Source: Chiloscyllium plagiosum (taxonomy: Eukaryota). Taken from it: DNA of 61,472 nucleotides. The DNA lies in the NCBI RefSeq assembly GCF_004010195.1, contig NC_057718.1, forward strand, positions 53,491,413-53,552,884, given 5' to 3'. The first letter of the stretch is position 1, and the number at the start of each line of letters is the position of its first letter. The translations under genes and the position numbers were made by a program. This document shows, in pieces, positions 4,078 through 53,812 of this stretch. A model generated the notes under the pieces. The model saw only the letters and a program-made list of their open reading frames with translations, was not told the DNA's origin and did not search any database.

Positions 4078-4289
4078 GCTAAGAGTGTGGTGCTGGAAAA
4101 TCACAGCAGGTCAGGCAGCATCCAAGGAGCATGAGAATTGACATTTCGGACAGAAGGTCTTCCTGATAAAGGGCTTATACCCAAAATGTCAATTCTCCTC
4201 TCCCTCGGATGCTGCCTGACCTGCTGTGACTTTCCAGCACCACACTCTTGACTCTATTCTCCAGTATCTGCAGTCTTTACTTTCTCCTA
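4078..4289. mobile_element. Fold-back PLE pseudo-LTR mini-element with degenerate hammerhead
   Basis: Inverted arms aagagtgtggtgctggaaa...ttccagcaccacactctt. Flanking 14-bp repeat gcaa(t/a)ccattcaca at 4064-4077 and 4290-4303. Confidence 0.85.
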
Positions 4290-4304
4290 GCAAACCATTC
4301 ACAA

Positions 4305-4545
4305 AGTGGCAGAAGTGACGCAGCAGTCATACCATTTGGCCTAGTAATCCAGAGCCCCAGGGCTAATGTTCTACAATTGTCATAAAAACTTAACTGGCTC
4401 ACTGCTGACTATAGGGAAGGAAATGTCTTCCTTACCTATTCTGGCTTACAGATGACACCTTATCCATTGCCATGCAGCTGCCTGTTAAATTGGGCAAATA
4501 GGGATTGGCAATGAATGGCCAGTGAGGTCCACATCCCATCAATAA
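4305..4545 (+). mobile_element. Bipartite SINE-like element sharing 5' and 3' ends with the LINE at 31516-38867
   Basis: Contains ctagtaatccagag and agggaaggaaat...tctggcttaca (LINE 5' part) and the tail gggattggcaatgaatggccagtgaggtccacatccca (LINE 3' part). Confidence 0.65.
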
Positions 4546-5146
4546 CTTTTATTAAATGTGTTAGTCCTGTTTGAATGTATCCAGCCGATGTGTTTAGTGT
4601 TGGCTGGATTCCGAAAACATTAAACTAAGAGATGGCACAAAATTGTCATGCTGTTTGCATTACCACCAATGAACATAATGCAAGTACCAATCATGACCTT
4701 GAAGTTTATTCTTTAGGGGGAAAAACAAATCTCGCTCCAGCAATCCTCCATTGCTCAGAAATGTTAAAGTTAAGTCATATTAATCATTCTAAGACGAGCC
4801 TTGAAATATTTTGATGAGATAATTATACATTTGTTATTGTTTTAAGCACAATTCTTTGTGCAACAGCCAAATCAGTGCAACAGATTGTTAAAATTCAAAT
4901 GCAAATTACAGTCAGCACAATTGTGTTTCTGGAGACTTTCACTCTAATTTAAAATATCACTGCAAGACACACACACACCACAAAAATTGTTCCCATTCAA
5001 AACTGTAACAGCCTGCAACTCCTCAAGTGAAATAAAAGTGATCCAGAAGGGAGGTCTGAAATAAACAGGGCATCAAAATTGGCCAAAAAGTGAGGTATGC
5101 TGACAATTCTGCATGGAGGCAAGTCATTTCAAGATCCAAGCTCAGA

Positions 5147-5311
5147 GTCGAGTGTATGGTGCTGGAAAAGCACAGCAGGTCAGGTAGCATCTGAGCAGCA
5201 GCAAAATCTGCCTGGCCTGTTGTGCTTTTCCAGCTCTCGACTCTGGTCTCCAGCATCTGTGGTCCTCACTTGGTCCTAGTTGATATTAACCTTACTGCGG
5301 AGCCTCTTCCA
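5147..5311. mobile_element. Fold-back PLE pseudo-LTR mini-element, centre deleted
   Basis: gctggaaaagcacagcagg pairs with cctgttgtgcttttccagc. Flanking aagat(c/g)caa(g/t)ctcaga at 5131-5146 and 5312-5327. Confidence 0.75.
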
Positions 5312-5727
5312 AAGATGCAATCTCAGACAACTGAAGCCAGAGAGGCATCAGAATATTTCAGGAAGTGTGAAAGGGCAATTCAACCCTTCATGAAAAACAA
5401 ACTAGCATGAGATGCATGGGGCAGGCCTTGGTAAGACAAAAGAATGGATGTATATTCTAGGATGAAACCAGAGTTCCAGGCCCCTAGAGCAGACACAAAG
5501 TGGTCACTGTTAAGCAAGCAATTGAGAGCCATTCGCAGCATTTCAAGTTGATAAAGCCAATTAATACGATAGCTCTGATTGGTCAAATCTTTGGAAAATT
5601 CCAGAAGGTAACCAGGAGGGTATAAGAACCCAGCCTGGCAGGACTCAATGTGCCTTCACTCTGCAGCCTACCTAGAGGCATGTCAGAGTAAGAGAGTGAA
5701 AGGGGAACAGACTGAACAATTCATCAA

Positions 5728-6210
5728 GGAGAAAGTGAATACTGCAGACGCTGGAGATTGGAGTCAAGAGTGTGGTGCTGGAAAAGCACAGCAGGTCAGA
5801 CAGCATCCGAGGAGCAGAAGAATGACATTTTGGGTAAATGCGCTTCATCAGGAATGAGGCTTGTAAGTCAAGGGAGTGGAGAGATAAATGGGAGAGGCAG
5901 TGGGGCTGCGGGGGGAAGGTAGCTGAGTGTGTAATAGGTGGATGAAGATGGGGGTGAAGGTGATAGGTCAGAGAGAAGAGTGGAGCAGATAGGTGAGAAG
6001 GAAGATGGACAGGTAATACAGGTCATGAGGGTGGTGCCGAGTTGGAAGAGTGGATGTAGGATAAGGTGAGGTGAGGGGAAATGAGAACTGGCGAAATCCA
6101 CATTGATCTGGTGTGGTTGCAAGTTCCCAAGGTGGAAGATGAGGCGTTCTTCCTCCAGGCATCAGGTGGGAGGCGACCCAGGATCGACATGTCCTTGGTG
6201 GAGTGGGAGA
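5728..6210 (-). mobile_element. 3' end of a Penelope-like retroelement (ORF C-terminus, 3' UTR, pseudo-LTR)
   Basis: Minus strand reads EEERLIFHLGTLQPHQINVDF, a typical PLE ORF C-terminus, then a pyrimidine-rich UTR, cctgatgaagc and the same terminal repeat as the mini-elements. Confidence 0.85.
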
Positions 6211-7879
6211 TTCAACAGCCCAGCATATTTCATCAGCAATTTATCAGCCCAAAGTTAGGAGTATCTGGGAAGTACTTTAACTTTCTAAAGAATCAGATAA
6301 TTATCAATCATTGATTAGTGTAAAATTTAACTCTTAATCTTTGTTATCTTCAAATAAAGTTGCAACATGGTTCACTGACTGTGGACTGGTGCTGTGTGGT
6401 CCTTTCTTCATACATGTTAAAGGTATCTGGGTAAATCAACATTGTGCATACTGGTTGAGGAGTCTGCAGAGTCTGTTCCAGAGAATGAAAGTTTCCATAA
6501 TTGACCCCATTTGAGAGGTTTCGGGATTAAGCTGGTTACTTTAGGATGCAATAATGCTATATTTTAAAACCTTCTTCAGATATTTAATGCTCACAGGTTC
6601 ATCTTATGGAAAGAAAGCTGGTACCTTGGCCATCACTATCCATAGCTGCAGACAACGATCTACAGGCTAAGTGCATATTGGTACAATAACAGACCTCCTG
6701 AGTGATCTGCAAAACGTCACCATCACTTACAGGTTACAGATCAGCAATCCTGCTTTTAAAAGCACTTGGTGATAAGCTCATTTCAAGTTACATTAATCAA
6801 ATACAGTAGGTTACCACTCATAAAGTAATATTTTCCAAAGCAAAATATTATTTGAAAGTGCTTTTGAAAATGTTATCCAATTGTGCTTGTTCAAAGTGCA
6901 TTTTATATTTGACAATTTGCAAATTGGTTTGAACTGAAACTTGATGCAGAAAAAGTATTTTAAAAATGAGTATCATTTTATTGCAATTCACAATTAGAGT
7001 ACTGATCACAGCCAAATTAGAATATTGATGAATCGTTAAGACATTTGAGTGCTATTTTGATTCAGTTCAATTGTCTTCATTATAATTTTGGGCATTGTTT
7101 ATTTTTGCAGGAAAATAAGTGTCCTGGTTGGAGGAGCCATATAACCTGTTCAGTATGAAGTTTGAGAAGGCCAGGATATCAGGCAGGAATTCTTTGTGAC
7201 AAATTCTGATTTGATTTCCACTGAAAGCAATTGTATAGCCACCATAAAAACATTCTTACGCCTGCATATGAGAAAGTTTCATTAAAACCTAAATCCTGTG
7301 TAAGTGAAAAAGATTACATTGAGAATTCCTGTGTGCTGAGATTCCCCATGTAATATAGATGAAAACTAACAAATAGATTTGACCGTTTTAGGAAAATAAA
7401 ATATGCATTTTTGTATTTTTCACTTCTGCAATAATCATAAATTATACTCAGATTTGAACTTTGCAAGACAAGGGCAGATATAAAGAATCAAGTTCATTTG
7501 TACTGCAAGTGAACTAAGCATTCTGAGTGGTAATTTTGCAAACTCGGAGGTTTAACAAAAAAGTACAAAATCAATTAGTTTTAATCTGTCCATTTTACCA
7601 GGGTGGCAAGAACTAGTTATGATATGTGCGAAAATATGGTCTGCAGACAAGGCCATACAACTGTGAGAGGCCTAAGTACAATACAGATCATTGATATTGT
7701 CTCCTCCTTTCATGTTGCCTCAATGAACATTTACAAATGTTAGTTGAGAATGGACACATTGTTCATCAGTGTAAGCATTGTTAGTTTTGCTGTGGTGATT
7801 GAGAAACTCTTAAAAAAGATCATTCCCATTTTCCTGACATTAGTTACAAATTTGAGAGTTCAAGTACCCACTTGACAGA

Positions 7880-10140
7880 GTATTCCATAAGGCGGCTGTC
7901 ATTGTCAGAGAAACAATGGTGAGTCTTCACCACTGTCATATGACTTTACCAAGTGGACTGGACGTTGGATTAAACTGCAAATCAAAACATCAGGGAAAGG
8001 CGACATCTCATTAGATTTGCTGCACCATCTTGTTCCATTGGCGAAATAATACCTGTTCGCATGCTCCTCAATGATCGGAAATGGTAATTTGCCCAAATCC
8101 TGTGTGAAGCAATTGCTGAAAACCTAGAAATCTGGCAGATGTCCCCAGGACCATAGACCCACTATTTTGCCCTGGAATAACTCATTCTTTTAAGAATGAG
8201 TTATTATCATAACCGCATCCCTGCCTCAAGAGCAGTCTGACTTCAGACTACAACATGATTGCTGTGAAAAGATTGCTACTATCGTCATGACCTACAAGGC
8301 TAATTTTCATCACAAACTTGAGATTGAAGCTGCTTTCATACAGTTTTGATTAGCCTATGACACTGTGTGGAAGTGATTCTTGGTACAAAGTACTTAAACA
8401 TTGCTAAAAGAACACCAGAAATTGAAGCATTTTGTCTACCACACACACACGTCATTTAGTATCCAAGTTCCAAAGCTGATAATGTCAAGTATGCAGACTC
8501 TACATGACAATATCATGCAGACCATATCAAACAACCATTCACAGCTGGGTGCTCGCTGACCGTGTTCAACCAGGTCATGCTTGCAAATCTCAGAAAAGTA
8601 TATCCACCAATGTGGTTCTGCCTTTGGAAATCTGTTGTCAAATAATCAGAACTATGCTAAGAGTTACAAAAGAAATCAATTTAAGATAATCAGTCAGGCC
8701 TGCAGTGTGATGCAATTGCAGGTGCTAGAAGCTACATGCAAAACTATTTGAGACCCTATCTTCATGGCAACATCTTGACCAATAGAATCTACCTGCCCAG
8801 TCTGGGAATGAAAATTGACAGTTAATTGCTCTTGTTACATTTCCATGCTATTTGTGGCTGAACCAATTAGCACCTTATCTTCATTTTGTATAACATGGTG
8901 TCTCTTCCATGAAATTAAATTCTTGCATCCTTGCTCTGATGATTGTATGACAAAAAGCTTAAACCTCTAGTCTTATTTCAGCAGATTCTCATTGTACCCT
9001 CTACTTCAACTACTCAGACATTTCTGATTAACAAAACAATGAAGGTCTAGCTATAAGACACACTAAACGACCCATGAATACTCAATGGTCTCCAATAAGG
9101 CAATACCCTGGCACTGACTCTTTTGAACATCATGTCTACCATATCAGGAAAATGTATATACATCAACAATATCATCTTGAAAATTCAGGCAAAATCTTTC
9201 CAACATAAGCTGTGATAAACTGTCAGAAATGACTAATATTTCCACAAGTGGACACTGTAACCAAACCCAGTAAATTCTATTTTGTCAGTATCTTGGATTG
9301 AAAATTGCAATGCTGAAAATGTGTTGCTGGAAAAGCGCAGCAGCTTAGGCAGCATCCAAGGAGCAGGAGAATCGACGTTTCAGGCATGAGCCCTTCTTCA
9401 GGAATTAGTAGAGGAGAAGAGAGCTTCTTCAAGGAAGGCATCCTTGCAAGAGGATTCGCAGTAAGTTAAAATCTTCGAGGAGAAAGTGAGGATTGCAGAT
9501 GCTGGAGATCAGAGCTGAAAATGGGTTGCTGGAAAAGCGCAGCAGGTCAGGCAGCATCCAAGGAGCAGGAGCAGCTTCTTCAGGGCTCATGCTCGAAACA
9601 TCAATTCTCCTGCTCCTTGGATGTTGCCTGACCTGCTGCGCTTTTCCAGCAACCCATTTTCAGCTCTGATCTCCAGCATCTGCAGTCCTCAATTTCTCCT
9701 TGAAAATTGCAATGTACATGTACTGTAAAGGTCACCTTCTACAGAAGAAAAGTGTGGTATAACCCATTTCCTACCTAACTTGGAGTTTTCCTTGACTACT
9801 CCTTAACTTACAATCATCACCACTGAAAGAAAGACTGCTGAAAAGATACAAATGCAGACTCCGAAGCCTCATCAACAAAAGAAAATACTCCCCACTTCTT
9901 TTGTTACTCTGGTTTTCTCAGCAACTCAGTGCTGTACATCTATGTGAGCCTCATGTTGTCACAGTAAACCAATTGACACACAACTGTTGCAATGTCTTAT
10001 GAGGCAGCAATAAGAAGACAATCCAATCAACCTTATTATCATTAGATACATAAACCAGTGAACTTCAATAATCAATGACCCGCAAAATTGCCCAATTGTT
10101 CTTAACCGGATGTTACAAATGCCATAACCTAGACACCAAG
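7880..10140 (+). mobile_element. Highly decayed non-LTR retrotransposon RT (Ingi/Vingi-like), interrupted by insertions
   Basis: Colinear motif relics: QEQSDFR (~8228), AAFI..LAYDTVW (~8330), NGLQ*G.TLA.TL.NI (~9084), LGV.LD.SLTY.HH (~9780) and IDTQL (~9971). Confidence 0.6.
9313..9699. mobile_element. Tripartite PLE pseudo-LTR insertion (two minus copies, one plus copy)
   Basis: 15-bp TSD ttgaaaattgcaatg at 9298-9312 and 9700-9714. A minus-strand hammerhead core lies at about 9370-9404. Confidence 0.9.
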
Positions 10141-10746: not shown

Positions 10747-10914
10747 CTTTAGATTGGTAATTAAGTTGCAATCTTGTCTTCAAGTTGTTATCTTGCATGT
10801 CAGTTCCTAACAGCAAACACCTTTGTTTATTTTCTTCTATTTTAAAACACACAGCTGTTCAGGATTTAACTGATTCTAAACTCAAATCATGTTTCAACCA
10901 GAGAAAAAGAAAAA
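10747..10914 (+). repeat. 168-bp direct duplication, copy 1
   Basis: Identical to 11374-11542 except for one T/C substitution and one A indel. Confidence 0.97.
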
Positions 10915-11240
10915 GGGTGGCACGGTAGCACAGTGGTTAGCACTGCTGCTTCACAGCGCCAGAGACCCGGGTTCAATTCCCACCTCAGGCGACTCTCTGT
11001 GTGGAGTTTGCACATTCTCCCCGTGTCTGCGTGGGTTTCCTCCGGGTGCTCCGGTTTCCTCCCACAATCCAAAAATGTGCAGGGGTTAGGTGAATTGGCC
11101 ATGCTAAATTGCCCGTAGTGTTTGAGAAAGGGGTAAATGTAGGAGAATGGGTCTGGGTGGGTTACGCTTCGGCGGGTCGGTGCGGACTTGTTGGGCCGAA
11201 GGGCCTGTTTCCACACTGTAAGTAATCTAATCTAATCTAA
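10915..11240 (+). mobile_element. Full-length HE1-type V-SINE (tRNA-derived)
   Basis: A-box-like tagcacagtgg, B box ggttcaattcc, V domain gtgtggagtttgcacattctccccgtgtctgcgtgggtttcctccggg, CR1-like 3' end and (TCTAA)n tail. Confidence 0.95.
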
Positions 11241-11242
11241 AA

Positions 11243-11365
11243 GCCTACGGCCATACTAGTCTGAAAAAAAACGCCCGATCTCGTCTGATCTGGGAAGCTA
11301 AGCAGACTCAGGCCTGGTTAGTACTTGGATGGGGAGACCGCCTGGGAATACCAGGTGCAGTAGGC
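11243..11365 (+). rRNA. RNA5S: 5S rRNA copy (orphan, probable retropseudogene)
   Basis: Full-length gcctacggccatac...gggaataccaggtgcagtaggc with box A (agctaagcag) and box C (ggatggggagacc). It has an A-run expansion, an extra G and no TTTT terminator. Confidence 0.95.
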
Positions 11366-11373
11366 CTGTCTCC

Positions 11374-11542
11374 CTTTAGATTGGTAATTAAGTTGCAATC
11401 TTGTCTTCAAGTTGTTATCTTGCATGTCAGTTCCTAACAGCAAACACCTTTGTTTATTTTCTTCTATTTTAAAACACACAGCTGTTCAGGATTCAACTGA
11501 TTCTAAACTCAAATCATGTTTCAACCAGAGAAAAAAGAAAAA
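11374..11542 (+). repeat. 168-bp direct duplication, copy 2
   Basis: Matches 10747-10914. Confidence 0.97.
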
Positions 11543-11559
11543 TAGTGAGGGTCTCCATG

Positions 11560-12118
11560 CTGGCAAAATGAAAGACCAGATGACCCAGTACAACCCATGG
11601 ACAAAACCAACGTCATCTACAAAATTCCATGCAAGGACTGCCACAAACACTAGTAGGACAAACAGGAAGAAAGTCAGCCACCAGGATACACGAAAACCAG
11701 CTAGCCACAAAAAGACACGACTCTCTCTCCCTCGTAACCTACACTCGGATGAAAAAAAAACACCATTTCGACTGGGACAACACATCTATCCTGGGACAGG
11801 CTAAGCAAAGACATGCCAGAGAATTCTTAGAGGCCTGGCACTCCAACCACAATGCCATAAACAAACACATAGATCATGCCATCTATCAACCCCTCAGAAA
11901 ACGAACAGGAAATTACAATCACCACAAACCCCAGGAACCCCATCCAGGACAAACATATAAATAGAAAGCAGGAGACAACAGCTTCGCTTCACTTGGAGGT
12001 CGCCACTGATGATGTAACCTAGCCAGGTAATGAAACGTCTGGATATCAAACCTACAGCTCAGCGAGCAAAGCTACTCCCTAAACCTCAACCTGAGCTACA
12101 AACCTTCACAAACCTTGC
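11560..12118 (+). mobile_element. 5'-truncated Penelope-like element (GIY-YIG endonuclease domain plus pseudo-LTR)
   Basis: NVIYKIPCKDC, then after a frameshift VGQTGRKSATRIHE...REFLEAWHS..AINKHID, the GIY-YIG signature of PLEs. A hammerhead motif lies in the 3' repeat. Confidence 0.92.
12003..12042 (+). ncRNA. Minimal type-I hammerhead ribozyme motif (helix II slightly decayed)
   Basis: cca-CTGATGA-t-gtaacc-tagcca-ggtaat-GAAAC-GTC-tgg, with helix I formed by cca/tgg. Confidence 0.75.
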
Positions 12119-16216: not shown

Positions 16217-16903
16217 CTTCAATTAAACATGATGGCATTCAGAAATCAAGAGCAAAACCTTGTGTGTAAATTGTCTTCTGGTCATGTCAACTAAGCAAAT
16301 ATAATCAGATAAACGCACATGAAAGCAGAATCCAAAGTTTCCATTTCAGAAGAATATTCCACAGTTCACACTGGATGGTAATGCATCATAAAATACTGCC
16401 ATATTCACATACTGACGTGTAAGCGTTTTTGGACAATTCTGTGATGTGGAAGGGAGTCTATTTTTTGAGAGCATGATCATATTGACTTACTAGCAGAATT
16501 CTACCCACTGGTGTAACATAGATATTCAAAATACATTTGGATGAAGTTGCCTACTTCAGAGCTCAATATAGAGATGTGACCTGGAGTACCTTGAGAAGCC
16601 TCCATGGTACATTGTTTGAGGAGTTTGTTATCTTACTAACATTCCCCACAGATTGTCTGTTCACTCATTTAACATGGAGATGGCCATGGCTGGAGGCCTT
16701 ATGGCCTTGATTTGATTCTGAAGACACCATGGAACGAAACAACAATTGCAATGTTGTCAATGATCCCTGCAAGAACAGCAATATTCAAATACTGCTGAAC
16801 AGCTTTCAGAGGGAGAAGCAGCAGGAGAAGATCCACCGAATGAAATGGAAGACCATGTTAAGATATTGGGTCGACAGTCCTCACTGCCATTCTCTTCAAC
16901 TGT

Positions 16904-17489
16904 TGTGGTTCTGTTCGCCGAGCTGGGAATTTGTGTTGCAGACATTTCGTCCCCTATCTAAGTGACATCCCCAGTGCTTGGGAGCCTCCTGTGAAGCACT
17001 TCTGTGATCTTTCCTTCACCATTTGTAGTGGTTTGAATCTGCCGCTTCTGGTTGTCAGTTCCAGCTGTCCGTTGCAGTGGTCGGTATATTGGGTCCAGGT
17101 CGATGTGCTTATTGATTGAATTTGTGGAGGAATGCCATGCCTCTAGGAATTCCCTGGCTGTTCTCTGTTTGGCTTGTCCTATAATAGAATCCCACAGATT
17201 CAATCAATAAGCACATCGACCTGGACCCAATATACCGACCACTGCAACGGACAGCTGGAACTGACAACCAGAAGCGGCAGATTCAAACCACTACAAATGC
17301 CGGAGGAAAGATCACAAAAGCGCTTCACAGGAGGCACCCAAGCACAAATTGAAACCAGATGGATGGAATTACTGAATCAGAGGATGTCACCTAGACAGGG
17401 TACAAAACGTCTGCAAAACAAATTCCCAACTCGGCGAATAGAACCACAATAACGAGCACCCGAGCTACAAATCTTCTCACAAACTTTGA
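16904..17489. mobile_element. Penelope-like element 3' fragment with inverted duplication and TSD
   Basis: The left arm (minus) encodes IIGQAKQRTAREFLEAWHS..SINKHIDLDPIY. The right arm from about 17199 is its reverse complement. Perfect 15-bp TSD attctcttcaactgt at 16889-16903 and 17490-17504. Confidence 0.95.
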
Positions 17490-20169
17490 ATTCTCTTCAA
17501 CTGTCTGAGAAATAATACAGGGAAATGAAAAATTTATTGGTCCATCAGCTCTGAACTGTGTCATCTGCTACAGGATAAGTTGCACAGGATAAGAACTGGA
17601 TTGTAATCTCATGGAACTGGAAAGCTGTGTGGTATCTTCCGATCCTTGACCTATCAATGGATTTGGGGCGTAACATTTTCTTCAGATCCTTGCGCCATGC
17701 CAAAGACGGACAAACGGTCTGGGTAGTGGTATTCTCCAACATCACTGGTGCCTCCAGGCAGAGGATGCTATTAACAAAATCCATTTTGCTTTAAGAGCAT
17801 CTGCTATCAACAACGTTCATCAACAAAAGTGGTTTATACTCAATCAATGCTCACATTATATGTGACCATCCAATGCCATGTCTTGGGGGTCTTCAACAGA
17901 TTTCTTGGGAGCTAGAGAGCTTACAGGTTCCTGAATCCTGCTGAGATATTTGGGCCATACAGGGATGGGTTCTAGGAGAGAAGGGCTACTCCCTCCAAAC
18001 CATGTCTCATGGCACTCACTGATTTTTCATTCTTTGTGCTTTTATTCTTTTATCAATGCTAGTTTTAAGCTGAAGATGACTTGTGGACTTTGTGAAACAG
18101 CTTGTGGTACAGGAAAAGAACAGAGCAAGAAATCTTTTGTTTGTTTGTGAGGCCAGGTCTGGAGGCCAATTGCAGACTGAGTCTTGATCAGAAGGGTTCA
18201 CATAGACGCAGTGAACCCACGAAGAGCACTGAATTAAATAGATAGCAGAAGTTAGCTATTCACAAGATCAGTACTTGGAAATTCATTCTGGTGAGGCTGG
18301 AAGCGATCCTATCTTCAAACAAATGGCAGTTGGCGAATGGTAAGTGGAAAGCAATGATGAGTCTATCAGGGCACAATCCCTGTTATTTTTGAACTGTGCC
18401 TTCTGGAGAGGATGAGCTTGGTTGCTGACAACACAACATGAAGATTTAAGAAGATCCTTCTCTAATCTGCCACATCACCTTTTGGATATGCAAAGATAGA
18501 AAGTTGAGTTAGAAGTATTGCTAGCTTTACCTGAGTGAAGTGAAAAGGTGACCTTGATCAATGATTCAGAAAAGGAAAGCCATTTAAGTATTGTGGCTAG
18601 TTTTGTTATTTTCTTTTAATTATCCCTTCACTATGTTTAAATGTCTATCTCTCCGTCTCTTGTGTGAATGTGAGCTGAAAGTAAATATTTTGGGTTTTAA
18701 GATTAAACATTAATCAGTTTACCTTATTTTTGTTCTCTCTGCTAAAGTTATAGTTAAGATAATGTTTAAAAATACAAAACCAGTATATGGAATTAGCTAT
18801 TCACAAAGTCTGGATTTGTTATTCAGAAGACTGGTTACAAACTGTTGAATAACGATTGTGGTCCTGACAGTTTAATTTTATCATGTTGTGAATACAGAGG
18901 TAGGAAGACTTATTTGGTTTGGCTGTCTGTCTCCATGTCATAAGGACACCTTTCAAAACCTTCAGACTGATGTAGAATTAAATTGCAATGTTGCTCTTGC
19001 TTCCTCCTGAACCAGAGTAGAATGGATGATAAACCTCCTGAACATAAGGTTTTGATGCAAAGTTTGCTTCAGTGGAATCTTGCCATATAACCCATAAAGG
19101 AGAGCTGCATTATTATGACATGCAGGTCCCTTCACAGCTGACAAAAGAAGGATGTCCTGGCTCCTGATAATATTAAGATGAACAGCAATATTCTGAGGTT
19201 GATGATGAGGATCAAGACAGTGACTAAAAGGGCCATCTGAAACAAAATGACAGAGCAATGTATCACTGAGGCCCAGATGCCAGAGAGAACTTAATTGAAA
19301 GTTGCTTTCAGGATGAACGAGCTGAGTTTGGACATCTTTTAATCAGTTAACTCTCCACTGGCAAGAAGCCCTGCTTAGAGCAAAGGTCAAGTAGATCTTG
19401 TTACTTTTGCAATTTTGGAACATTTGTGTTGTTAAATGTTTTTTATCCATCTGATTGTACGCTTGATATTATCCCACTTTCAGTTATGTCCACCTTACCT
19501 CCAGACCATGAGGGAAAAAGCAGTGTGCAATGAGATAATGCACTAAGATTGCATTGTGTTAAGGTTATTTGCTGTGAGGGTAAGTGGGTATATAAGTGTC
19601 CATTGTGCTTCTCACAGCTTTGCATGGCAGTGTGCTGCTTCAAAAAAGCTGATCCATCGAATGAACATTTATCTCCATGAATGTGTGTAATTTTCGCTGA
19701 TTCCATTGTCTCTCTCATATGGTGAGTATAAGTTTTGAATAAAGTGCACTTTCTTTTGTTCACTGTATTTAGGTGGTGGTGGAACTGAAGGGCTTGGTAC
19801 TGGCTTCTTTGAGGTGCAGAATTGCTAGGTGTTGCTCGTGCCTGCATACGGGCAAGGATGGAATTAGTTGTCTAAGAGGAATAAAAGCTTATGAATCCAT
19901 CTATACTGGTGGTGATTGATGAGCAGTGCAGCACAATGAAACTTACTGGGCTCCCCTTCCCTACATAAGCAGTTGTGCTGTTTTCCAGGTTGGTTAAATA
20001 AATCTTCTTCTTGTACTGATTGAGGGGCCTGATGTCCACCATCCCTCCCCATCCTACTTCCTGCCAAATTTGGCTAATTTGGTCAAGCTGTGGGTCAATT
20101 TTCTTTTCCTGCAGTAAGACAAAGGGAAGGATTGAGTATGTCAAAGAAGATGGGTGGAAAAGAAATTTC

Positions 20170-20270
20170 TTCAGAAGAAGAGGTTCCAGACTTGAAATGT
20201 TAACTCTGTTTTTTCTCCACAGTTGCTGCCAGACCTGCTGAGTTTCTTCAGCAATTCCTGTTTTTGTTTG
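20170..20270 (+). mobile_element. Old PLE pseudo-LTR with decayed hammerhead
   Basis: cagaagaagaggttccagacttgaaatgttaactct...ccagacctgctgagtttc. Confidence 0.7.
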
Positions 20271-23936: not shown

Positions 23937-23939
23937 TAT

Positions 23940-29584: not shown

Positions 29585-29743
29585 TTCTCCTGCTGAACAC
29601 TCTCTGCTCATTCCTGAAGAAGGGCCTGTGCCCGAAACGTCGAATCTCCTGTTCCCTGGATGCTGCCTGACCTGCTGTGCTGTTCCAGCAATAAAGTTTC
29701 AACTTTGATCTCCAGCATCTGCAGACCTCACTTTCTCCTCGAA
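29585..29743 (+). mobile_element. Solo PLE pseudo-LTR flanked by a 59-bp direct duplication
   Basis: Identical 59-mers at 29526-29584 and 29744-29802. Confidence 0.93.
29610..29645 (+). ncRNA. Minimal type-I hammerhead ribozyme motif
   Basis: attc-CTGAAGA-a-gggc-ctgt-gccc-GAAAC-GTC-gaat. Helix I is attc/gaat, helix II is 4 bp, palindromic acgt is at helix III, and the triplet is GUC. Confidence 0.85.
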
Positions 29744-37020: not shown

Positions 37021-38867
37021 TAGACTTCAAACAGAACTTCCAATTCAAGACTGGGCTGTGGGCCATCAGCAGCAAGCAGAGTTGTACTCCAGCACAATCT
37101 GTAACTTCATGGCCTAATATATCCCCCACTCAACCATTACCATCAAGCCAGGGAGTCATCACTGAGAGTGCTGGAAGGTATGCCAGGAGCAGCAGCAGAC
37201 AGATCTGCAAATGTGATGAAGCTACCAAACAGGCTACTTAAATGTCAAACAGCAATAAGCAACAAATAACAGACAGAGGTCAGTAAGCCCACAACCAGCG
37301 GGTCAGATCTAAGCTTTTCAGTTATGCTGTATCCAATCGTGAATGGTGGTTGACAATTAAACAACTTACTGGAGGAGGAGGTGGTTCCACAATATCCTCC
37401 TCCTCAATGATGGAACAGCCCAAACCATCAGGGTAAAAAAATTAAGGCTAAAGACTTCGCAGCAGTCTTCAGCTAAACGTTGAAGTGGGTGATCCATCTC
37501 AGCCTCCTCCAGTGTTCCCTGCATTTCAGATACCAGTCTTTAGCCAATTTGAATCACTCCATGTAATGTCAAGAAACAGTTGGAGTTACTGATACCGCAA
37601 AAGCTATGCACCCTGGTAATAGTACTAAAGACTTGTGCTCCAGAACTTGCCACTCCCCTAACCAAGCTGTTCCAGTGCAATTGCAAAACTGGCATTTACC
37701 TGACGATGTGGAAAAAGACTCAGGTATGTCTTGTACATTAAAAGCAGAACAAATCCAACCTGGCCAGCTATCACCTCATCAATCTTCCCTTGATCATCAG
37801 TAAAGTGATGGAAGGTATCATCACAGTGCTATCAAGCAGCACCTGCTCAGCAATAACCTGCTCAGTGGTGCCTGGTTTGGGTTCTGCCAGGGCCACTCAG
37901 CTCCTGACCTCGTTACAACCTTGGTTCAAACATGGGCAAAAATGCTGAATTCCAGAGGTGAGGGGAGAGTGACAGCCCTTGACATCAAGGCTGCATTTAA
38001 TTGAGTGTGGCATCAATGAGTCCTAATAAAACTGGAATCAGTGGGTATCAGTGGGCAAAACCTCCGCTGGTTGGAGTCATACCTGACACATGGCTTTGGT
38101 TGTTGGATGTCAGTCCTCTTAGCTACAGGACATCTCTACAGGGGTTCCTCAGTGTAGTGTCCTAGGCCAAACCATCTTCAGTTGTTTCATCAAATACCTT
38201 CTTTCCATCACAAGATCAGAAGTGGGGATGTTTGTCAATAATGCACAATGCTCAGCACTATTCATAACACCTCAGATACTGAAGCAGTCTATGTTCAAAT
38301 GCTACAAGACCTGATCAATATCTAGGCTTGGGCTGACAAGTGGCAAGTAACATTCATGCCACATAAATGCCAGTAAAAAATCATCATCAATAAGAAAAAA
38401 ATCTAAGTACCTCTCCTTAACATTCTATGGTGTTACCATCACTGAATCCCCCACCATCAACATCCTTGGGGTTACCATTAACCATCCATTCCCTCCACTA
38501 CCAATGCTCAGTAGCAGCAGCGTGTACTATGTACAAGATTCTCTGTAGAAATTCACCAAAGATGTTTAGATAGCACCTTCTAAACAGTTAACCACTCCCA
38601 TCTAGAAAGGGATGGGCAGCAGATAAATGTGAATACCACCGGCAAGTTCCCCTCCAAGCTACTCACTATCCTGATTAAGAAATATGTCGCTGCTCCTTCA
38701 CAGTTGCTGGGCGAACATTCTGGAACTGGCCCCAGGGTATTGTGGGGCAACCTACAGCAGGTAGACTGGAGTGGTTCAAGAAGGCACCTTCTCAAGGGCA
38801 ACTATGGATGGTTAAAAAATGCCAACCAGCCAGTGATGTTCATGTCTCATGAATGAATAAAAAAAAT
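37021..38867 (+). mobile_element. CR1/L2-group LINE, 3' part (RT and tail)
   Basis: QFGFRQGHSAPDL-like segment, ALDIKAAFN*VWH, GVPQCSVLG and WADKWQVTF, ending catgaatgaataaaaaaaa. Confidence 0.88.
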
Positions 38868-40037: not shown

Positions 40038-40095
40038 CAGAAACAAAACCAGAAAATGCTGGAAAATCTCAGCAGGTCTGGCAGCATCTGTAGAA
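40038..40095 (-). mobile_element. Old PLE pseudo-LTR fragment
   Basis: aaacaaaaccagaaaatgctggaaaatctcagcaggtctggcagcatctg. Confidence 0.65.
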
Positions 40096-40299: not shown

Positions 40300-40492
40300 G
40301 AGAAAGTGAGGACTGCAGATGCTGGAGATCAGAACTGAAAATGTGTTGCTGGAAAAGTGCAGCAGGTCAGGCAGCATCCAAGGAGCAGGAGAATCAACTT
40401 TTCCTGAAGAAGGGCTCATGCCCGAAACGTCGATTCTCCTGCTCCTTGGATACTGCCTGACCTCCTGCACTTTTCCAGCAACACATTTTCAG
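40300..40492. mobile_element. Fold-back PLE mini-element with intact hammerhead core (40404-40431, +)
   Basis: Inverted arms around CTGAAGA-a-gggc-tcat-gccc-GAAAC-GTC. 15-bp TSD ctcagatgcttgatg at 40285-40299 and 40493-40507. Confidence 0.92.
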
Positions 40493-43309: not shown

Positions 43310-43377
43310 TAAGATAATACAGATTTTTCAGTCTGCTCAAGCCTTTAAATAATTTCAGCAATTTGATTCTGAATTTG

Positions 43378-43515
43378 AATCACAAACAGAAATTGCTGGA
43401 GAAACTTAGCAGATCTGGTCGCATCTGTGGTGACAAAGCAGAGTTAACACTTTGGATCCCGTGATTACGTATTCTGCTTTTGTTTCAATCTTCCAGCAAC
43501 CACATATTTTTGGTG
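43378..43515. mobile_element. Old PLE pseudo-LTR piece
   Basis: cagaaattgctggagaaacttagcagatctgg...gcagagttaacactttgg. Confidence 0.6.
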
Positions 43516-43564
43516 TATTTTTTAAAATTCTGAATTTATTGTTTTGATCATTTTCCATTTTTAA

Positions 43565-43870: not shown

Positions 43871-43885
43871 TTGTCTTTGTCTGTA

Positions 43886-44911: not shown

Positions 44912-46668
44912 AGTATTGGGAAAATAAATAGTGACATCTTGAAAAATGTCCATATTACAGAGGAGGAGGTGCTGGACACCTTAAAATGCATAAAGGTGAA
45001 TAAATCCCCAGGACCTGATCATGTGTACCCTAGAACTCTGTGGGAAGCTAGGGACATGAGTGCTGGGTCTCTCACTGAGACAGTTGTACAATCGATAGTC
45101 ACAGGGGAGATGCCAGAAGACTGGAGGCTGGTGAATGTTGTGCCACTATTTAAGAAATGTGGTAAGGAAAAGACAGAGAACTATAGACCAGTGAGCCTTA
45201 CATCTGTGGTGGGCAAGTTGGTGGACAGGATCCTGAGGAACAGGATTTACATGTATTTGGAAAGCACTTCTTGAAGAAGGGCTCATGCCCGAAACGTCGA
45301 TTCTCCTGCTCCTTGGATGTTGCCTGATCTGCTGCGCTTTTCCAGCAACACATTTCAGCTCTGATCTCCAGCATCTACTGTCCTTACTTTCTCCATGCAT
45401 TTGGAAAGATAAGGACTGATTAGGAATAGTCAGCATGGCCTCATGCATGGAAAATCATGTCTTACCAACTTAATTGAGTTTTTTGAAGAAGTATCAATGA
45501 GGATTGATGACGGCAGCATGGTAGGCGTAACCTATATTGACCTCAGTAAGGCATTTGACAAGGTTCCTCAAGGTAGACTGGTTAGCAAAGTTAAATCACA
45601 TGGAATACAGGGAGAACTAGCCATTTGGATACAAAACTGGCTTGAAGGTAGAAAACAGAGGGTAGTGGTAGAGGGTTACTTATAAAACTGGAGGCCTGTG
45701 ACCAGTGGTGTGCCATAAGGATTGGCTGACTCCACTGCTTTTTGTTATTTACATAAATGATGTGGATGTGAACATAGAAGGTATAGTTAGTAAGTTTGCA
45801 GATAACGCCAAAATTGGAGGTGTAGAGGACAGCGAATAAGGTTACCTCAGGGAACAACAGGATCTTGATCAGAGGAGCTGGTGGGCTGAGGAGTGGGAGA
45901 TTGTGCTTAATTTAGATAAATGCAAGGTGCTGCATTTTGGAAAGGCAAATCAGTGCAGGAATTATACATTAATAGTAAGGTCCTGGGGAGTGTTCCTGAA
46001 CAAAGAGACCTTGGAGTGCAGGTTCATAGTTCCTTGAAAGTGGAGTTTTAGGTAAATAGAACAATGAAGAAGGTGCTTGGGATGCTTTCCTTTCTTGGTT
46101 AGTGCATTGAGTACAGGAGTTGGGATATCATGTGATGGCTGTACAGGACATCAAGTTAGGCCACTTTTGGAATACTGTGTTCAATTATGGTCTCCATGTT
46201 ATACAAAAGATGTTGTGAAACTTGAAAGGATTTGAGGGTTTGAGCTATAGGGAGAGGCTGAATAGGCTGAGGCTGTTTTCCTTGGAGTGTCAGAGGCTGA
46301 GGGGTGACCTTATAGAGGTTTATAAAACCATGAGGGGCATGGATGAGGTCTTATCTACAGGGTAGAGGAATCCAAAACTATAGGGCATAGGTTTATGGTG
46401 AGAGAGGGAATATTTAAAAGAGACCTAAGGGGAAACCTTTTCACATAGAGGGTAGTGTGTTTATGAAATGATCTATCAGTGGAAGTGGTGGCGGCTAGCA
46501 CAATTACAAGATTTAAAAGTCATCTGGATGGGTATATGAATAGGAGGGGTTCAGAGAGATATGTGCTAAATGCTAGCAAATGGGACATGATTCATTTATG
46601 ATATCTGTTCGGCAAAGAGGAGTTGGACTGAAGGGTCTGTTTCCATGCTGTACAGCTCCATGACTATA
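44912..46668 (+). mobile_element. 5'-truncated CR1 (HER1-type) ORF2 RT and 3' UTR
   Basis: KSPGPD, DWRLVNVVPLFKK, ENYRPVSLTS, DLSKAFDKVP and SKFADN, with tail ccatgactata. Confidence 0.95.
45265..45393 (+). mobile_element. Solo PLE pseudo-LTR inserted in CR1
   Basis: TSD catg(t/c)atttggaaag at 45250-45264 and 45394-45408. The uninterrupted CR1 at 57184-57198 (minus) has a single copy of this site. The hammerhead has a C3U variant. Confidence 0.93.
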
Positions 46669-47944: not shown

Positions 47945-47954
47945 AAATATTACT

Positions 47955-48046
47955 GAAAACAGCAAATGTCAGCAATCCCAGCAGGTTAGACAGCATCCAT
48001 GGAGAGACAGCAAGCTAACATTTTGAGTCTAGATGACTTTTCATCA
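47955..48046 (-). mobile_element. PLE-type pseudo-LTR with decayed hammerhead
   Basis: Minus strand reads tgatgaaaagtcatctagactcaaaatgttagcttgc...atggatgctgtctaacctgctg. Confidence 0.6.
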
Positions 48047-48343
48047 TGAATGATTATGTTGGACCAAATGCTAAGATAAGAATCAAAAGTGCTGATTCCA
48101 TCCTTGTAGATCACTGGCTCTTTGCTCACTCTTGTCTTGCTAACACATCATCTGCAATGCTGCCCAATGTGTGTAGCAAGGTACTGATCTGATCCTCATT
48201 GACTTGGTTGCCAAACCTTTTTGTAATGTTTGAATTGCCTTCTCCAGTACTGCTATCATTCTGTCTGTCATGGATCCTTCACGGTTTCAAATTTCTGTGG
48301 AAGTGACAAGGTTGCATCCATTTCCCCTCCCTGGCCCAAGATT

Positions 48344-48458
48344 TTCTGAGGAAGGCCCTTCTGAGGAAGAGTCACCAGACCTGAAACGTTAACTTTGATT
48401 TCTCTTCACAGATGCTGCCAGACCTGCTGAGTTTTTCCAGCAACTTCTGTTTTTGTGT
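48344..48458 (+). mobile_element. PLE pseudo-LTR with hammerhead-like core
   Basis: CTGAGGA-agagtcaccagacct-GAAAC-GTT-aac...cagatgctgccagacctgctgag. ttctgaggaag is duplicated at the 5' end. Confidence 0.75.
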
Positions 48459-50566
48459 CAAGATCTTCCTCTTGAGCTTCAACTTGATTGGTCTTTGGGC
48501 TGTGTTTCTTTCAAGTTTTTCTCTGTCCTTTCTGATCAAAAGGAGTGTACCACAAAGTTTTACCTTCTACTTTGACTTGCTGTTGGGTCTCTTCAACAGT
48601 GCTACTAACGATTGCTGTCCTGTAGTGTTTTAAAAGGTGGGACCATTCAAAGATAGAGACATGGTTACAATTGGAGGACTTTTCTATTTTTTTACACCAC
48701 ATTACTTATTTAGATTCCAACTCAGCAAGAGGTTTCAGCTTTCGATCCTTTCCAGAGTCTCATCATCATGTGATTATGATGTCTAAATTGACATGGCGTT
48801 CTGAGGACTTGTGCTGGTGTTAGCTCTTTACTTTACAGTGAAAGACTTCTAAAATCCCCAGAAGGTAAATGTAAATGGACTTGTCAGCAGTTTGTACCAT
48901 TTCTTTTGTACATTAGGATGGGAAGGCTCCACTTATCTTCTGTTAATGTTATGCTCAAACCAGCATTAACCCACACAGAAGTGCAAAGCTTCTCACTGAC
49001 ACCATATTAAAAATACTTTCCCAAGCAATCAATGGGAATGGTTTTAAAGTCCATAATTTTCTCCTGTTGTAGGCTTTCCTTCCTGTGTTATGTTACATTC
49101 ACTTGTTCTCTTCAGTGTGCAGAACTGCAACCATGAGGTTTCCTCAAAGAGCATGGGCCAGAGCTTCTGCTGCAGTGATGGTGAGGAAATGTCAGCAGCC
49201 CTTCTCACCAGGCATCAGTTACAGGAACAATAGTAGCTCACCAACTGTGTCTGGAACTGAGCCCTCTTAGATTTGAATCCCTGTCCTTTTCAGAGTATTT
49301 TGTTGGAAAGAAACATGTAAATAATTGTATCGATACAAATATTTTAATACACTCTACGCTTTGATTGCTGACTTGTGAGTAATGCTGCAAAGTAATTGCA
49401 TAGGCATTATAGAGGAGGATAAGATCAGACGCCACAATGCACTCATTCATAATTCAACAGCTGTCAATTAGCCTGTGGTCAAATTGGCTGCTGACACTCA
49501 CTGTCAAGGCTCTCAAATGAAAATGACACAAAGGTAAGGTACTTGAATCTGACTGGCACTGATAGATCCATGTCTCAGGATGAGTCAGTGTCTTTGAAAG
49601 AGAAAATCAAAAAAAAAAGTCCAATTATTTATTCAATAAAAATGTTCAAAACCTGGAGCCAAGTAAAGGATTCTATTTTTTGCAGCAGTTTCTTCCAATT
49701 AGATAAAGGTGATGGATATATCATTATTCACTGTTACAGAAGAGCTATCTTGTACATTAACACAAATCCTTTTAATGTTTGCAATAGTTGCTGTATTTAC
49801 CAGCAATCAACCACACATCACTTCTTGTTAAGTTCACAGTTGTATCAATATTATTCATAATGCTGTGCAATCGACAATGTGCTTCAAGATTATGGAGCAC
49901 CTTGGGATTTGGCCTGTCCACCAATATTTGGCATCCATATTGGTAGCTGGTGCCAGCACAAAAGTTGCCCTAAAAGTACACATGCCTCTCAGAACACTGA
50001 ACGAGCACAAATACGAGGAAGCAATCTTAATGCTAGAACCACTGACAGTGTTAAAGATGACTGTTTACTCCTGGGGGTTTATGACATTATCTGAACTCAA
50101 ATCAAATTACTGCTCATTGTCATTGTTGTTTCCACCCCTACACATTATTCAGGAGCAATTCACAGGAAGGGAGCAGAGAATTATTTAAGACAATAGCAAA
50201 TTGCACAAAATCTGAAGAGACAAAAAGAACAAAGAAACCTTTACACAGACAGACATATATTTCAGTTTTGATTCTGTATCCTGAAGACATTTTTCCCACA
50301 TTTTCCATTTCAGCATCAGTTGAACAATGATAGGGCACAGACGGAACAGTATAAACTCTCAGACTGAGCTTTCTCAGTGTTCCAGCTGCTAAACCCACTC
50401 AATGTAAAACTAAATGATAAAGGCTAGGAAAATTCTTGTCAGTAGTCTGTGCTATCAAACAACATGGAATAAGTAGTCTCAGTTTATTTGGTTTTAAAAT
50501 GGGGTAAACTTCCAGTGTTCACATTCCCACTCCAGACAAGAATATCAATGCATTTGAGCAGCAAAT

Positions 50567-50666
50567 TTGAGTGTCATTCCTAATGAAGGGCTCTTGCCCG
50601 AAATGTTGATTCTCTTGCTGCTTGGATGCTGCCTGACCTTCTGTGCTTTTCCAGCATCTTACTCTT
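50567..50666 (+). mobile_element. PLE pseudo-LTR flanked by a 32-bp direct duplication
   Basis: 50535-50566 versus 50667-50698, with 3 mismatches. Confidence 0.85.
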
Positions 50667-51312
50667 GACGAGAATATCAGTGCATTTGAGTAGCAAATAA
50701 AGATGGGATTGAGTTTAGTTCTGATACTCTTCAGAGTTGAACAACTTGGTAGAAGAAGAATTAGATTTTATTATCACATATATTCAAGCATAGGAATACG
50801 AATGAAAAGTGCACAAAGTCTCCATTCTCCAACACCATCTTGGTTACAAAACTAAGAATTTAATAAAGCAGCAGCAGAAACAAAAGAAAGGCAAAAGGTA
50901 AGACAAATGTCCAGACCTTAAAGTCTAAGTGATTTTTCCATTTGGGATTTGGAACCACCAATGCAGGCATTCGGCCTAGCCGTGGTCCAGAGTCTCGGTC
51001 AGCTGGAAGGTTTTGCATCAATCGCCAGGAGGAGCCATTTTCTTGCTGCCACTACTGCCTCTGGTCACTGGAGGAGCTTTGCTACCGTTGCTGCTGCCAC
51101 TGCCTCCAGCGCTGAACACCAGGAGGAACCATCTCCTTGCAGGCTCAAAGTTCAAGAATAGCTGAGGGAACCGTAAAGGAAATTCCCCTATTCCAGTCTG
51201 GGCCAAAGCAAATGCCTGCTCTCACCCAAGTTGGATATTGGTGAAGAAGTGTAGTTCGTCAAGGATGCACATTTCATTGGCATGGGCTTTTCTGAACTTC
51301 CTGGGCACATAA

Positions 51313-51815
51313 AGTCATAGAGATGTACAGCACGGAAACAGACCCTTTGGTCCAACTCATCCATACTGACCAGATATCCCCATCTAATCTAGTCTAATTT
51401 GCTAGCTGTGGGCCTATATACCTCTAAATCCTTCCTATTCATATACCCATTCAGATACCTTTTAAATGTCACAATTGTACCAGCTTCCACCACTTCCTCT
51501 GGCAGCTCATTCCATACATGCACCACCCTCTGCGTGAAAAAGTTGTCCATTAGGTCCCTTTTATATCCTTCCCCTCTCACCCTAAACCTATTCCCTTTAG
51601 TTCGTGGCTCCCCACCCCAGGGAAAAGACCTTGTCTATTTACCCTATCTATGCTCCTCATAATTTTATAAACCTCTGTAAGGTCACCCCTCAGCCTCCAA
51701 TGCTCCAGGGAAAATAGCTCCAGCCTATTCAGCCTCTCCATATCGCTCAAACCCTCCAACCCTGGCAACATCCTTGTAAATCTTTTCTGAACCCTTTCAA
51801 GTTACAAAATATCCT
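51313..51815 (-). mobile_element. CR1 (HER1-type) 3' fragment
   Basis: MLPGLEGLS..ERLNRLELFSLE..RLRGDL.EVYKIM and FFTQRVV.VWNELPEEVVEA. Confidence 0.93.
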
Positions 51816-53319
51816 TAGCGTGTGGAGAAGCAGTGGATCATCTCAATTTCCTGATATATTTTTGGAGGTGTTTATGATCTTGATTTTAGTGACCCTGCAA
51901 GCTACCATGTCTGTCCAGCCACTCCCTGAGAAATATAACCAAGCATCTGAACTGCTTCCGCAAGATGCTTATTGTGTGTTTGTTAATGATCGAAGTAGAC
52001 GAAGGCATTCCTCATTAATATTTGGGCTGTGCTGTTGATCATGGTTATTCTGAATAGTCAGGAGCCTGAATTGTAAAGGTCATCTTGGAGCTATTTGCTT
52101 ATACTTCTTGTCACATAATAGCTGAACAAATTGCAGAGGCCTCTCATTCTGTTGGTAGTTGGAGAAACTTAGGAATTCTTTGACTGGTCCAATAACCATT
52201 TCGTACTGACACTGTGACCAGTGGTGACTGAAAAGTGTATCTTTGCACAAGTCAGTAGCCTAAATAAAGAAGAAGCAGACATTTTCAAAGATAGGGAAAT
52301 TGTGAAAAGAAAGACTTATAAGATTAAGGATTCCTTTTATAAATCTTTGAAGCCCTTTGTGTGTTGGAACAATTACAGCTCAACAATTACTACTCCACGT
52401 TGATATGTCTTTATTTTTCATCAACTGTTAGGTTAGTTAACACTTTTGGTTAACAGTTATTGTAACTTTCAGTTGTAAATTTCCATGGAAATTTATCAAC
52501 TATTGTTTCGCTTTTTAAAAGGTTTTATGGTACAGATTTTATGTAAACAAATCATCTCAATACAAATCATTTTTAATTACAAATGCAAAATATTTAGCAA
52601 AATATGATTTTTTAAATGAAGGCAAACATCAAGCCAGACTAATGCAGTAACCAGATGGATATTAGCTACACATTGCAACAATAAATCAAAAATCACCACA
52701 CTACTTAAGCATAAAATAAAACACATACTAATTACAAATATATCAAAACATGCCGAACCACAGCTCAAGCTACTAAGGCCTTAAAACACTCAGTTCCTGG
52801 AAGATAGTCTCCTTTTATGTAGGTCAAACTCATTACACTCTTTTGACCACAGCAGAAATGTGTCTGCCAGTAAGTATGAGCTCTGAGTGCATTAACTCTT
52901 ACTGGTGGTCACATGGGAATTGTGCACTTGGATTAGCTATGCATTTATTCTGATTTTGTAGTTAATCAGGTTGAGTTCCCCTCAGTTGTCCGACACAGAA
53001 TGCTTAGATTTTGTGAGTTGTTTTGCCTAATGAAATGTAATGGGTTGATATCAAATGCATCATAATTATTATTATTTAAAATCATCCTCCAGCTTTGAAA
53101 CGTGGTAATGAAAACAGCAAATTAGTAAGATCAAAAAGAAAATGAACAGTTCAAACAGCGATAGTGTGCACAGAGGACAAGTGCAACTGTAATATGAAAA
53201 ATCACAAGCTTCAGAGAATGGTTTGTACAAAACATGCTGTTTGGAGTTCAAACAAATTGTGTCAGTAATGTTTAAACAAGTCAGGATCCACAGCAGCAAC
53301 TAGGTTTCTGCTACCTCCA

Positions 53320-53540
53320 GGAGAAAGTGAGGTCTGCAGATGCTGGAGATCAAAGTTGAAACTTTATTGCTGGAACAGCACAGCAGGTCAGGCAGCATCC
53401 AGGGAACAGGAGATTCGACGTTTCGGGCACAGGCCCTTCTTCAGGAATTCCTGAAGAAGGGCCTGTGCCCAAAACGTCGAATCTCCTGTTCCCTGGATGC
53501 TGCCTGACCTGCTGTGCTGTTCCAGCAATAAAGTTTCAAC
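53320..53540. mobile_element. Spacerless fold-back PLE mini-element with head-to-head hammerheads
   Basis: 95-bp arms 53353-53447 and 53448-53542 with one mismatch. Perfect 14-bp TSD ttctgctacctcca at 53306-53319 and 53541-53554. Confidence 0.95.
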
Positions 53541-53650
53541 TTCTGCTACCTCCACTCAACAAGTATGTGAATTGTTACTACTGCTTCAGGTACCTCCAGT
53601 ACCTTAATGTTAAGTCAAAGACAATGTATCAAGGTTAACTGTGAAGAGTT

Positions 53651-53812
53651 AGGAGAAAGTGAGGACTGCAGATGCTGGAGATCAGAGCTGAAAAATGTGT
53701 GGCTGGAAAAGCGCAGCAGGTCAGGCAGCATCCAAGGAACAGGAGAATCGACGTTTCGGGCATGAGCCCTGAAGAATTCCTGACCTGCTGCGCTTTTCCA
53801 GCAACACATTTT
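53651..53812. mobile_element. Fold-back PLE mini-element with short right arm
   Basis: TSD ttaactgtga(a/g)gagtt at 53635-53650 and 53813-53828. Confidence 0.88.

Follow-up and report, generated by a model that had tools for sequence, protein, structure and literature searches.

The 61,472-nt stretch of Chiloscyllium plagiosum DNA analyzed here (contig NC_057718.1, positions 53,491,413 to 53,552,884; hereafter the window, whose first letter is position 1 of all coordinates below) has a GC content of 40% and harbors ten insertions derived from Penelope-like element (PLE) pseudo-long terminal repeats (pseudo-LTRs); these insertions comprise 17 arms and were delimited by self-comparison and profile search. 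They amount to about one insertion per 6 kb of the window; no open reading frame (ORF) lies between the arms in nine of the ten, and 16 of the 17 arms are ORF-less. An initial annotation, made from the letters alone, had listed nine small insertions and one longer copy, all of which were recovered here, and had called six of the nine inverted dimers. These six (4078, 5147, 9313, 40300, 53320, and 53651) are indeed inverted and all head-to-head, with 9313 being three-armed. Taken together, these sequences are real and dense but look like commonplace PLE debris, in which one regularity is informative about mechanism; they do not stand up as a new mobile element. The insertions, named by their first position, are as follows:

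4078..4289, no single strand: head-to-head pseudo-LTR dimer of subfamily A, left arm with a short end and right arm tailed; 14-bp duplication at 4064-4077/4290-4303
5147..5311, no single strand: head-to-head dimer of subfamily A without a hammerhead, left arm beginning near the cleavage site and right arm extending ~35 nt beyond the tail; a weak 16-bp duplication, mismatched at 2 positions
5728..6210, minus strand: 5'-truncated PLE copy of subfamily A with decayed endonuclease C-terminus, pyrimidine-rich 3' untranslated region, and tailed pseudo-LTR; no clear duplication
6063..6161, minus strand: stop-free 33-codon stretch, its middle 17 residues resembling the Neptune GIY-YIG end (by eye)
9313..9699, no single strand: three-arm insert of subfamily B; 15-bp exact duplication
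9313-9405, minus strand: first arm of 9313, short, with intact hammerhead
9406-9583, minus strand: second arm of 9313 (9313M), extending ~72 nt beyond the tail
after 9583 to 9699, plus strand: third arm of 9313, tailed
29585..29743, plus strand: single tailed pseudo-LTR of subfamily C with intact minimal hammerhead (core 29614-29641); 59-bp exact duplication
40300..40492, no single strand: head-to-head dimer of subfamily B, left arm tailed, the short right arm retaining an intact hammerhead at 40404; exact duplication of 15 bp
45265..45393, plus strand: single tailed pseudo-LTR of subfamily B with a mutation at C3 of the core, lying within a long interspersed element-like reverse transcriptase fragment; 15-bp duplication
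50567..50666, plus strand: single tail-less pseudo-LTR of subfamily A, core mutated, with 7-nt filler at its 5' end; 32-bp duplication with 3 mismatches
53320..53540, no single strand: near-perfect head-to-head palindrome of subfamily C (the youngest), left arm tailed and with an intact core, apex at 53446-53451 directly 5' of both hammerhead cores; 14-bp exact duplication
53651..53812, no single strand: head-to-head dimer of subfamily B, left arm tailed, central 17 nt mirroring the 9313 junction; 16-bp duplication

Flanking duplications were found around all nine small insertions, being 14-16 bp long in seven of them, 32 bp at 50567, and 59 bp at 29585, with scores of 8-59 compared with a maximum of 13 among 60 random positions (3/60 scoring at least 8 and 1/60 at least 10). 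The claim that each insertion carries its own duplication thus stands for the set, but those of 5147 (score 8) and 4078 (score 10) are weak when taken singly, and no convincing duplication was found around 5728 (score 4). The exact duplication around the 29585 copy (29526-29802) is unusually long, and the 22-25 nt lead of this copy is seen nowhere else in the window. The arms had been described as one repeat family of ~130 bp and instead sort into three subfamilies, namely A (4078, 5147, 5728, and 50567), B (9313, 40300, 45265, and 53651), and C (29585 and 53320); mean identity over a 53-nt core is 76-84% between subfamilies and 83% (A), 93% (B), and 100% (C) within them, and the subfamily C copies are 99-100% alike.

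The proposed origin from PLE pseudo-LTRs carrying a minimal type I hammerhead was supported, the motif conforming to the minimal type I design of PMC4209133, in which A9 is followed by an additional base. By contrast, the proposal that the repeat begins at or near a CTGANGA hammerhead start holds only in part: 9 of the 17 arms cover this start, but the core is intact in four (motif scan with per-arm check), and 5147 contains no hammerhead at all. CTGANGA itself occurs 67 times in the window versus 42 expected, and an Rfam search returned six matches at E<=1, none of them a hammerhead family and the hairpin matches lying under gathering scores. None of the ten insertions has two intact hammerheads in tandem, the second same-strand arm of 9313 being without most of the core. 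Folding predictions give each of the six dimers a long hairpin (-73 to -216 kcal/mol, plus strand), in which the single sense hammerhead of either strand would be buried. These hairpin formers are clustered and amount to six per 61 kb, or about one per 10 kb, rather than the one about every 7 kb first suggested. A second, older hammerhead-bearing pseudo-LTR family, absent from the initial annotation, is present as six single copies without clear duplications:

3655-3762, 20165-20270, 40038-40095, 43374-43465, 47955-48050, and 48345-48462: copies of the second family

With positions counted from hammerhead C3, the 3' ends of the arms are of three kinds: short ones at about +85 to +95, tailed ones at +124 to +129, and ones lying farther out, as in 5147R (~ +159) and 9313M (~ +197; both read from the alignment). 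Each of the six inverted inserts combines a short outer end with an opposite end that is tailed (~35 nt) or longer, which matches the published signature of PLE insertion, in which a pseudo-LTR has an inverted neighbor, one of the two bears a tail of 31 bp, and the target is duplicated (PMC3846280, PMC8557442, PMC8969392). Three arms (5147R, 9313M, and 29585) extend beyond the tail, and the extensions of subfamilies A and B are homologous, implying that the RNA template exceeded the mini unit in length. No match was obtained when the leader that lies downstream of the tail was used as a query, and it is no more than a putative ORF start. Splice-like motifs occur at 9455-9470 and 5270-5290: the end of the subfamily A tail resembles a branch point followed by a pyrimidine tract and an AG acceptor, and the subfamily B extension contains, on the opposite strand, GTAAGT, which we take to be donor-like.

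The 5' ends are far more uniform. The farthest 5' points are -3 (4078), -4/-5 (9313), -3 (40300), -3 (45265), -5/-6 (50567), -4 (53320), and -1 (53651, determined by eye), such that seven of the ten insertions end within a 6-nt interval, -1 to -6, just upstream of the hammerhead core; of the remaining three, 5147 is limited to ~ +30, 29585 carries a further 22-25 nt of unassigned lead, and 5728 reaches ~ -355. Under a uniform null over 130 nt, 10 of 2,000,000 trials were as extreme, the interval having been picked after viewing the data. Random extreme truncation thus does not fit the 5' ends; the expectation that these ends would be non-random was borne out, and the alternative raised in the initial annotation, plain extreme truncation of ordinary insertions, leaves the fixed 5' boundary unexplained. 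No more than 2 of the 17 arms begin close to the cleavage site (+28), 5147L lying within ~2 nt of it, and several arms end inside the hammerhead, at +7 to +30. Four of the six copies of the second, more distant pseudo-LTR family begin at the same 5' edge (by eye). A splice acceptor was considered as the cause of this edge and rejected, since 5728 has an AG at -10/-9, yet the ends lie at -1 to -6 and not at -8. The edge falls in TCATTCC, which we take to fit the initiator consensus YYANWYY. An internal promoter with an initiator has been reported for Penelope of Drosophila (PMC2377424).

Examination of the junctions between arms showed that 53320, the youngest of the dimers, forms a near-perfect palindrome whose apex lies at the 5' edge, and that the other dimers can be described (by eye) as a 53320-like structure minus central sequence, bounded by 2-3 nt of microhomology. 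There are five junction types among the six dimers, and no pair within the window has the same junction together with both ends, contrary to the idea that an identical mini-architecture would recur. Although 9313 and 53651 have 17 nt across the junction in common, their adjacent deletion and outer end differ, and they are therefore not copies of one unit. In both 53651 and 40300 each arm contains sequence missing from its partner; thus, neither is obtainable by simple fold-back copying. In 9313, the short arm reaching -4 adjoins the next arm at a point that lies ~72 nt beyond the latter's tail, which would be expected of a template jump after run-off. Private variants common to the arms of one insert number seven in 4078, three in 5147, one in 9313 (M and R arms), one in 40300, and none in 53320 or 53651.

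Evidence on the parental element comes mainly from 5728-6210, in which the sequence 5' of the pseudo-LTR contains a stretch rich in pyrimidines together with a disrupted reading frame. Seventeen residues of the 6063-6161 frame align gap-free to the endonuclease end of Neptune1_Nv with 7/17 identical (by eye; PMC8557442 Fig. S2). Database searches with the short, decayed ORF-end peptide of this copy gave no match, and an Atlas search with the ORF end returned merely unnamed or low-score clusters, which are a lead at most. Tblastn with 14 Poseidon-type proteins found matches at 11500-12070 and 16874-17463 and none at 5728-6210. Contigs of two DNA runs (see below) tile from the pseudo-LTR into the ORF-end region across the junction, and the linkage is therefore not private to this copy. 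Judging from these sequence comparisons, subfamily A likely belongs to the Neptune clade; the claim that 5728 reveals origin from a PLE ORF is thus backed by the by-eye endonuclease match, but not by any database match and for subfamily A only. The window also provides a Poseidon-type comparison case:

16904..17489, no single strand: Poseidon-type PLE head-to-head insert with the ORF C-terminus in both arms and a tail on one; 15-bp exact duplication

As this insert has the same geometry with ORF-bearing arms, a mini-element is not needed for the geometry. A 5'-truncated Poseidon-type PLE with an endonuclease end and a hammerhead motif at 12006 occupies 11500-12100; peptides related to it occur within several shark gene models, and the best named protein matches of the neighboring Poseidon-type fragment are in carpet sharks.

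Four sequencing runs were aligned to 5660-6260 at 80% likeness. We obtained 63,250 and 66,431 aligned contig pieces from DNA of organisms A and B (runs X1 and X13), 5,647 from a run presumed to be RNA, and 2,200 of 12,955,460 reads (0.017%) from a polyA single-cell RNA run. Summed depth is ~24 in the flank, 19.2 million in the best pseudo-LTR bin, and 1.6-1.8 million in the best ORF-end bin. The pseudo-LTR family is very abundant in two species, and ORF-bearing truncations are common as well. The ratio of pseudo-LTR to ORF-end depth in the two shark DNA runs, ~11-12 to 1, agrees with the count of arms, as anticipated, in that ORF-less copies outnumber ORF-bearing ones, but it is rough, confounded, and not a copy number: the pseudo-LTR core bin pools subfamilies, and the depth profile tracks local divergence of the reference copy. 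The same divergence confounds the drop in depth to 43% and 37% from 5842 to 5862, which spans the 5' edge. Tail-less ends with mixed A-rich flanks were observed at 5767-5769 in 568 and 606 contigs of run X1 (agreement 0.38-0.41). The best-supported 15 of 213 joints were found in at least 1-3 contigs per run and none of the 15 changes strand; the reference diverges at the hammerhead and palindromes collapse in assemblies, which makes these joints uninformative on recurrence. RNA reads cover the pseudo-LTR in both directions (1059 and 840), with no pile-up of read ends listed, although a polyA library would miss small circles. A>G places number 49 in RNA versus 44 and 40 in DNA against this diverged multi-copy reference, and no RNA run is listed for 26500-32500. 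Pattern-scan loci elsewhere (17 metagenome, 9 prokaryote, and 0 viral) were dismissed as chance, as none of the 26 exceeds 27 nt of the repeat.

Much of this architecture, including inverted pseudo-LTRs, tails, and opposite-strand hammerhead pairs, is already in print. Inverted insertions of endonuclease-containing (EN+) PLEs likewise have head-to-head arms, a palindromic junction, a 30-40 nt tail at one end, duplications, and solo pseudo-LTRs (PMC3846280, PMC8557442, PMC8969392), and the insertions of this window differ from them in their general lack of an ORF, their density, and the 6-nt confinement of their 5' ends. Minimal hammerheads of metazoan PLEs share the type I core, the extra nucleotide after A9, the short helix I, and the palindromic 15/16 positions with those seen here. 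The same work reports pairs of hammerheads that lie on opposite strands at a distance of 100-700 bp and regards dispersed singles as 'probably related to truncated PLEs' (PMC4209133); ends and junctions, which we tabulated, are not tabulated in its accessible parts, and sharks are not named there. The PAc protein of an anole Poseidon cuts and extends both strands in vitro, with reverse transcription starting at two internal sites whose spacing equals the tail and with hammerhead cleavage being dispensable (PMC11167929). That element belongs to another clade, and ORF-less products and run-off at the RNA 5' end are not discussed in the accessible text. Non-LTR retrozymes resemble the present units in being ORF-less, carrying a type I hammerhead, showing kinship to PLE pseudo-LTRs, and occurring in a cartilaginous fish, but they are defined as circle-forming tandems in head-to-tail order, at least two successive units of which contain a hammerhead (PMC7229834; bioRxiv 10.64898/2026.07.22.740005). 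The units of the window are singles or head-to-head pairs, and none of the ten insertions is such a tandem. A literature search, with most subscription papers and the 2005/2006 PLE reviews outside its scope, did not find the sharp 5' pile-up described as a 'strong-stop-like' run-off product.

We lean, with moderate confidence, toward the explanation that the units are by-products of insertion by an autonomous Neptune-clade PLE, formed by reverse transcription that is primed at two internal sites of the 5' pseudo-LTR and runs off the RNA at its 5' end, with the products joining in pairs by microhomology. The PLE protein would nick both target strands ~15 bp apart, and reverse transcription would begin internally, at either of two sites in the RNA that lie at the 3' end of the pseudo-LTR, giving products with or without the ~35-nt tail, or occasionally farther downstream; both the internal start sites and the two-strand cleavage are borrowed from work on a Poseidon element and may apply here by analogy. 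If priming took place in the 5' pseudo-LTR of the RNA, the template would end after ~90-130 nt at the 5' end of the RNA, a point just upstream of hammerhead helix I, and the complementary DNA (cDNA) would run off there like retroviral strong-stop DNA, such that the 5' pile-up would mark the RNA 5' end. A single pseudo-LTR could then represent one run-off cDNA, and two cDNAs primed on opposite strands and annealed by 2-3 nt of microhomology could produce a head-to-head dimer with a one-sided tail, its apex shortened by central deletions at joining or afterwards. Template jumps might account for the three-arm insert and possibly also for ORF-bearing copies. The hammerhead would be a passenger that marks the RNA 5' region and does not excise the unit, and the units themselves would be dead on arrival and built afresh at every insertion. 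Several points weigh against this explanation. The sample consists of ten insertions from one window, and the supporting in vitro work concerns a Poseidon rather than a Neptune element. TCATTCC is a short motif, from which we only infer a transcription start at the edge, and the 5' boundary is not clearly resolved by the depth profile, confounded as that is by the diverged reference copy. The 17-nt junction common to 9313 and 53651 is also unfavorable, as are the shared private variants, which also fit fold-back copying, arm conversion, distinct source loci, or a shared dimer ancestor. Finally, the window contains no ORF-linked copy of subfamilies B and C, and for these two a short non-autonomous master is conceivable, if unlikely.

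Such a master, considered for the whole set, would be short interspersed element (SINE)-like, consisting of the pseudo-LTR and a short downstream leader with the ORF lost; it would be transcribed independently and mobilized in trans by the PLE protein, with dimers forming at insertion. It is consistent with the predominance of ORF-less arms, the fixed 5' edge, the absence of ORF-linked B and C copies from the window, and the near identity of the C copies, and non-autonomous PLE derivatives have been described (Chlamys/MRC1; retrozyme preprint bioRxiv 10.64898/2026.07.22.740005). We nevertheless regard it as unlikely, considering that subfamily A is tied to an ORF, both in 5728 and in the contig pieces that tile across, and that the same pattern in three subfamilies and a second family is more simply explained by the mechanism itself; if the element of PMC11167929 is a guide, RNA ~55 nt downstream of the start sites would also be required, and the inserted minis are without it. 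About equally unlikely, or slightly more so, appears ordinary 5' truncation in which copying from the 3' pseudo-LTR stalls at a fixed block rather than at an RNA end, for instance at the folded hammerhead or where the pyrimidine-rich 3' untranslated region begins. Frequent 5' truncation is standard for PLEs (PMC8557442, PMC8969392), several arms do end within the hammerhead, and 5728 passes the boundary, but most ends lie just past the hammerhead, whereas a stall would be expected in front of it, and uniform truncation is rejected in the window.

Fold-back by self-priming, either on the 3' end of a cDNA or on an antisense template, was proposed for rotifer Penelope in the Discussion of PMC3846280; it would explain the palindromic apices, and 4078, 9313 (M and R), and 53320 fit one arm copied from the other, with private variants shared. 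It seems improbable as a general explanation, because neither arm is contained in the other in 53651 and 40300 unless later deletions are added, and because both outer ends fall on the two known classes of start site. Even less credible, indeed very hard to sustain, is a true non-LTR retrozyme whose hammerhead-cut, circularized RNA is reverse transcribed as a unit. The minimal type I hammerhead is present and intact in some arms, 9313 has two same-strand arms, and 5147L begins almost at the cleavage site, yet a head-to-tail pair of intact hammerheads is absent throughout, each dimer has one hammerhead per strand that would be buried in a long hairpin according to the predicted folds, few arms start near the cleavage site, and minimal hammerheads are reported to be inactive as monomers (PMC4209133). 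The self-propagating retrozyme- or SINE-like unit envisaged in the initial annotation is therefore disfavored by the one-sided tails typical of fresh PLE insertion, the lack of tandem intact hammerheads, the ends lying off the cleavage site, and a template longer than the unit.

Other repeats were also observed in the window. Within 10747-11542, a 5S ribosomal RNA-like sequence (11243-11366, 85.6 bits) adjoins a dispersed repeat, and the pair is flanked by a 169-bp direct repeat of 99% identity. At 33012-33262, a 127-bp direct repeat (98%) adjoins decayed reverse transcriptase and RNase H frames on the minus strand (33439-37129), which we take to be Gypsy-like.

Dense insertions with fixed ends bear on the formation of PLE pseudo-LTRs, inverted copies, and tails, in that they allow counting tests that distinguish among twin priming, fold-back, and run-off. 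It is possible, although we would put it slightly short of an even chance, that the main product of Neptune retrotransposition in these sharks is an integrated strong-stop-like cDNA, one that starts in the 5' pseudo-LTR and runs off the RNA at its 5' end, and that copying of the ORF needs a template jump. If this is true, hundreds of thousands of fossils would record start sites, the run-off point, and jumps base by base; the mechanism of PLE integration would become testable from genome sequence, and these insertions would be a major source of genomic hairpins.

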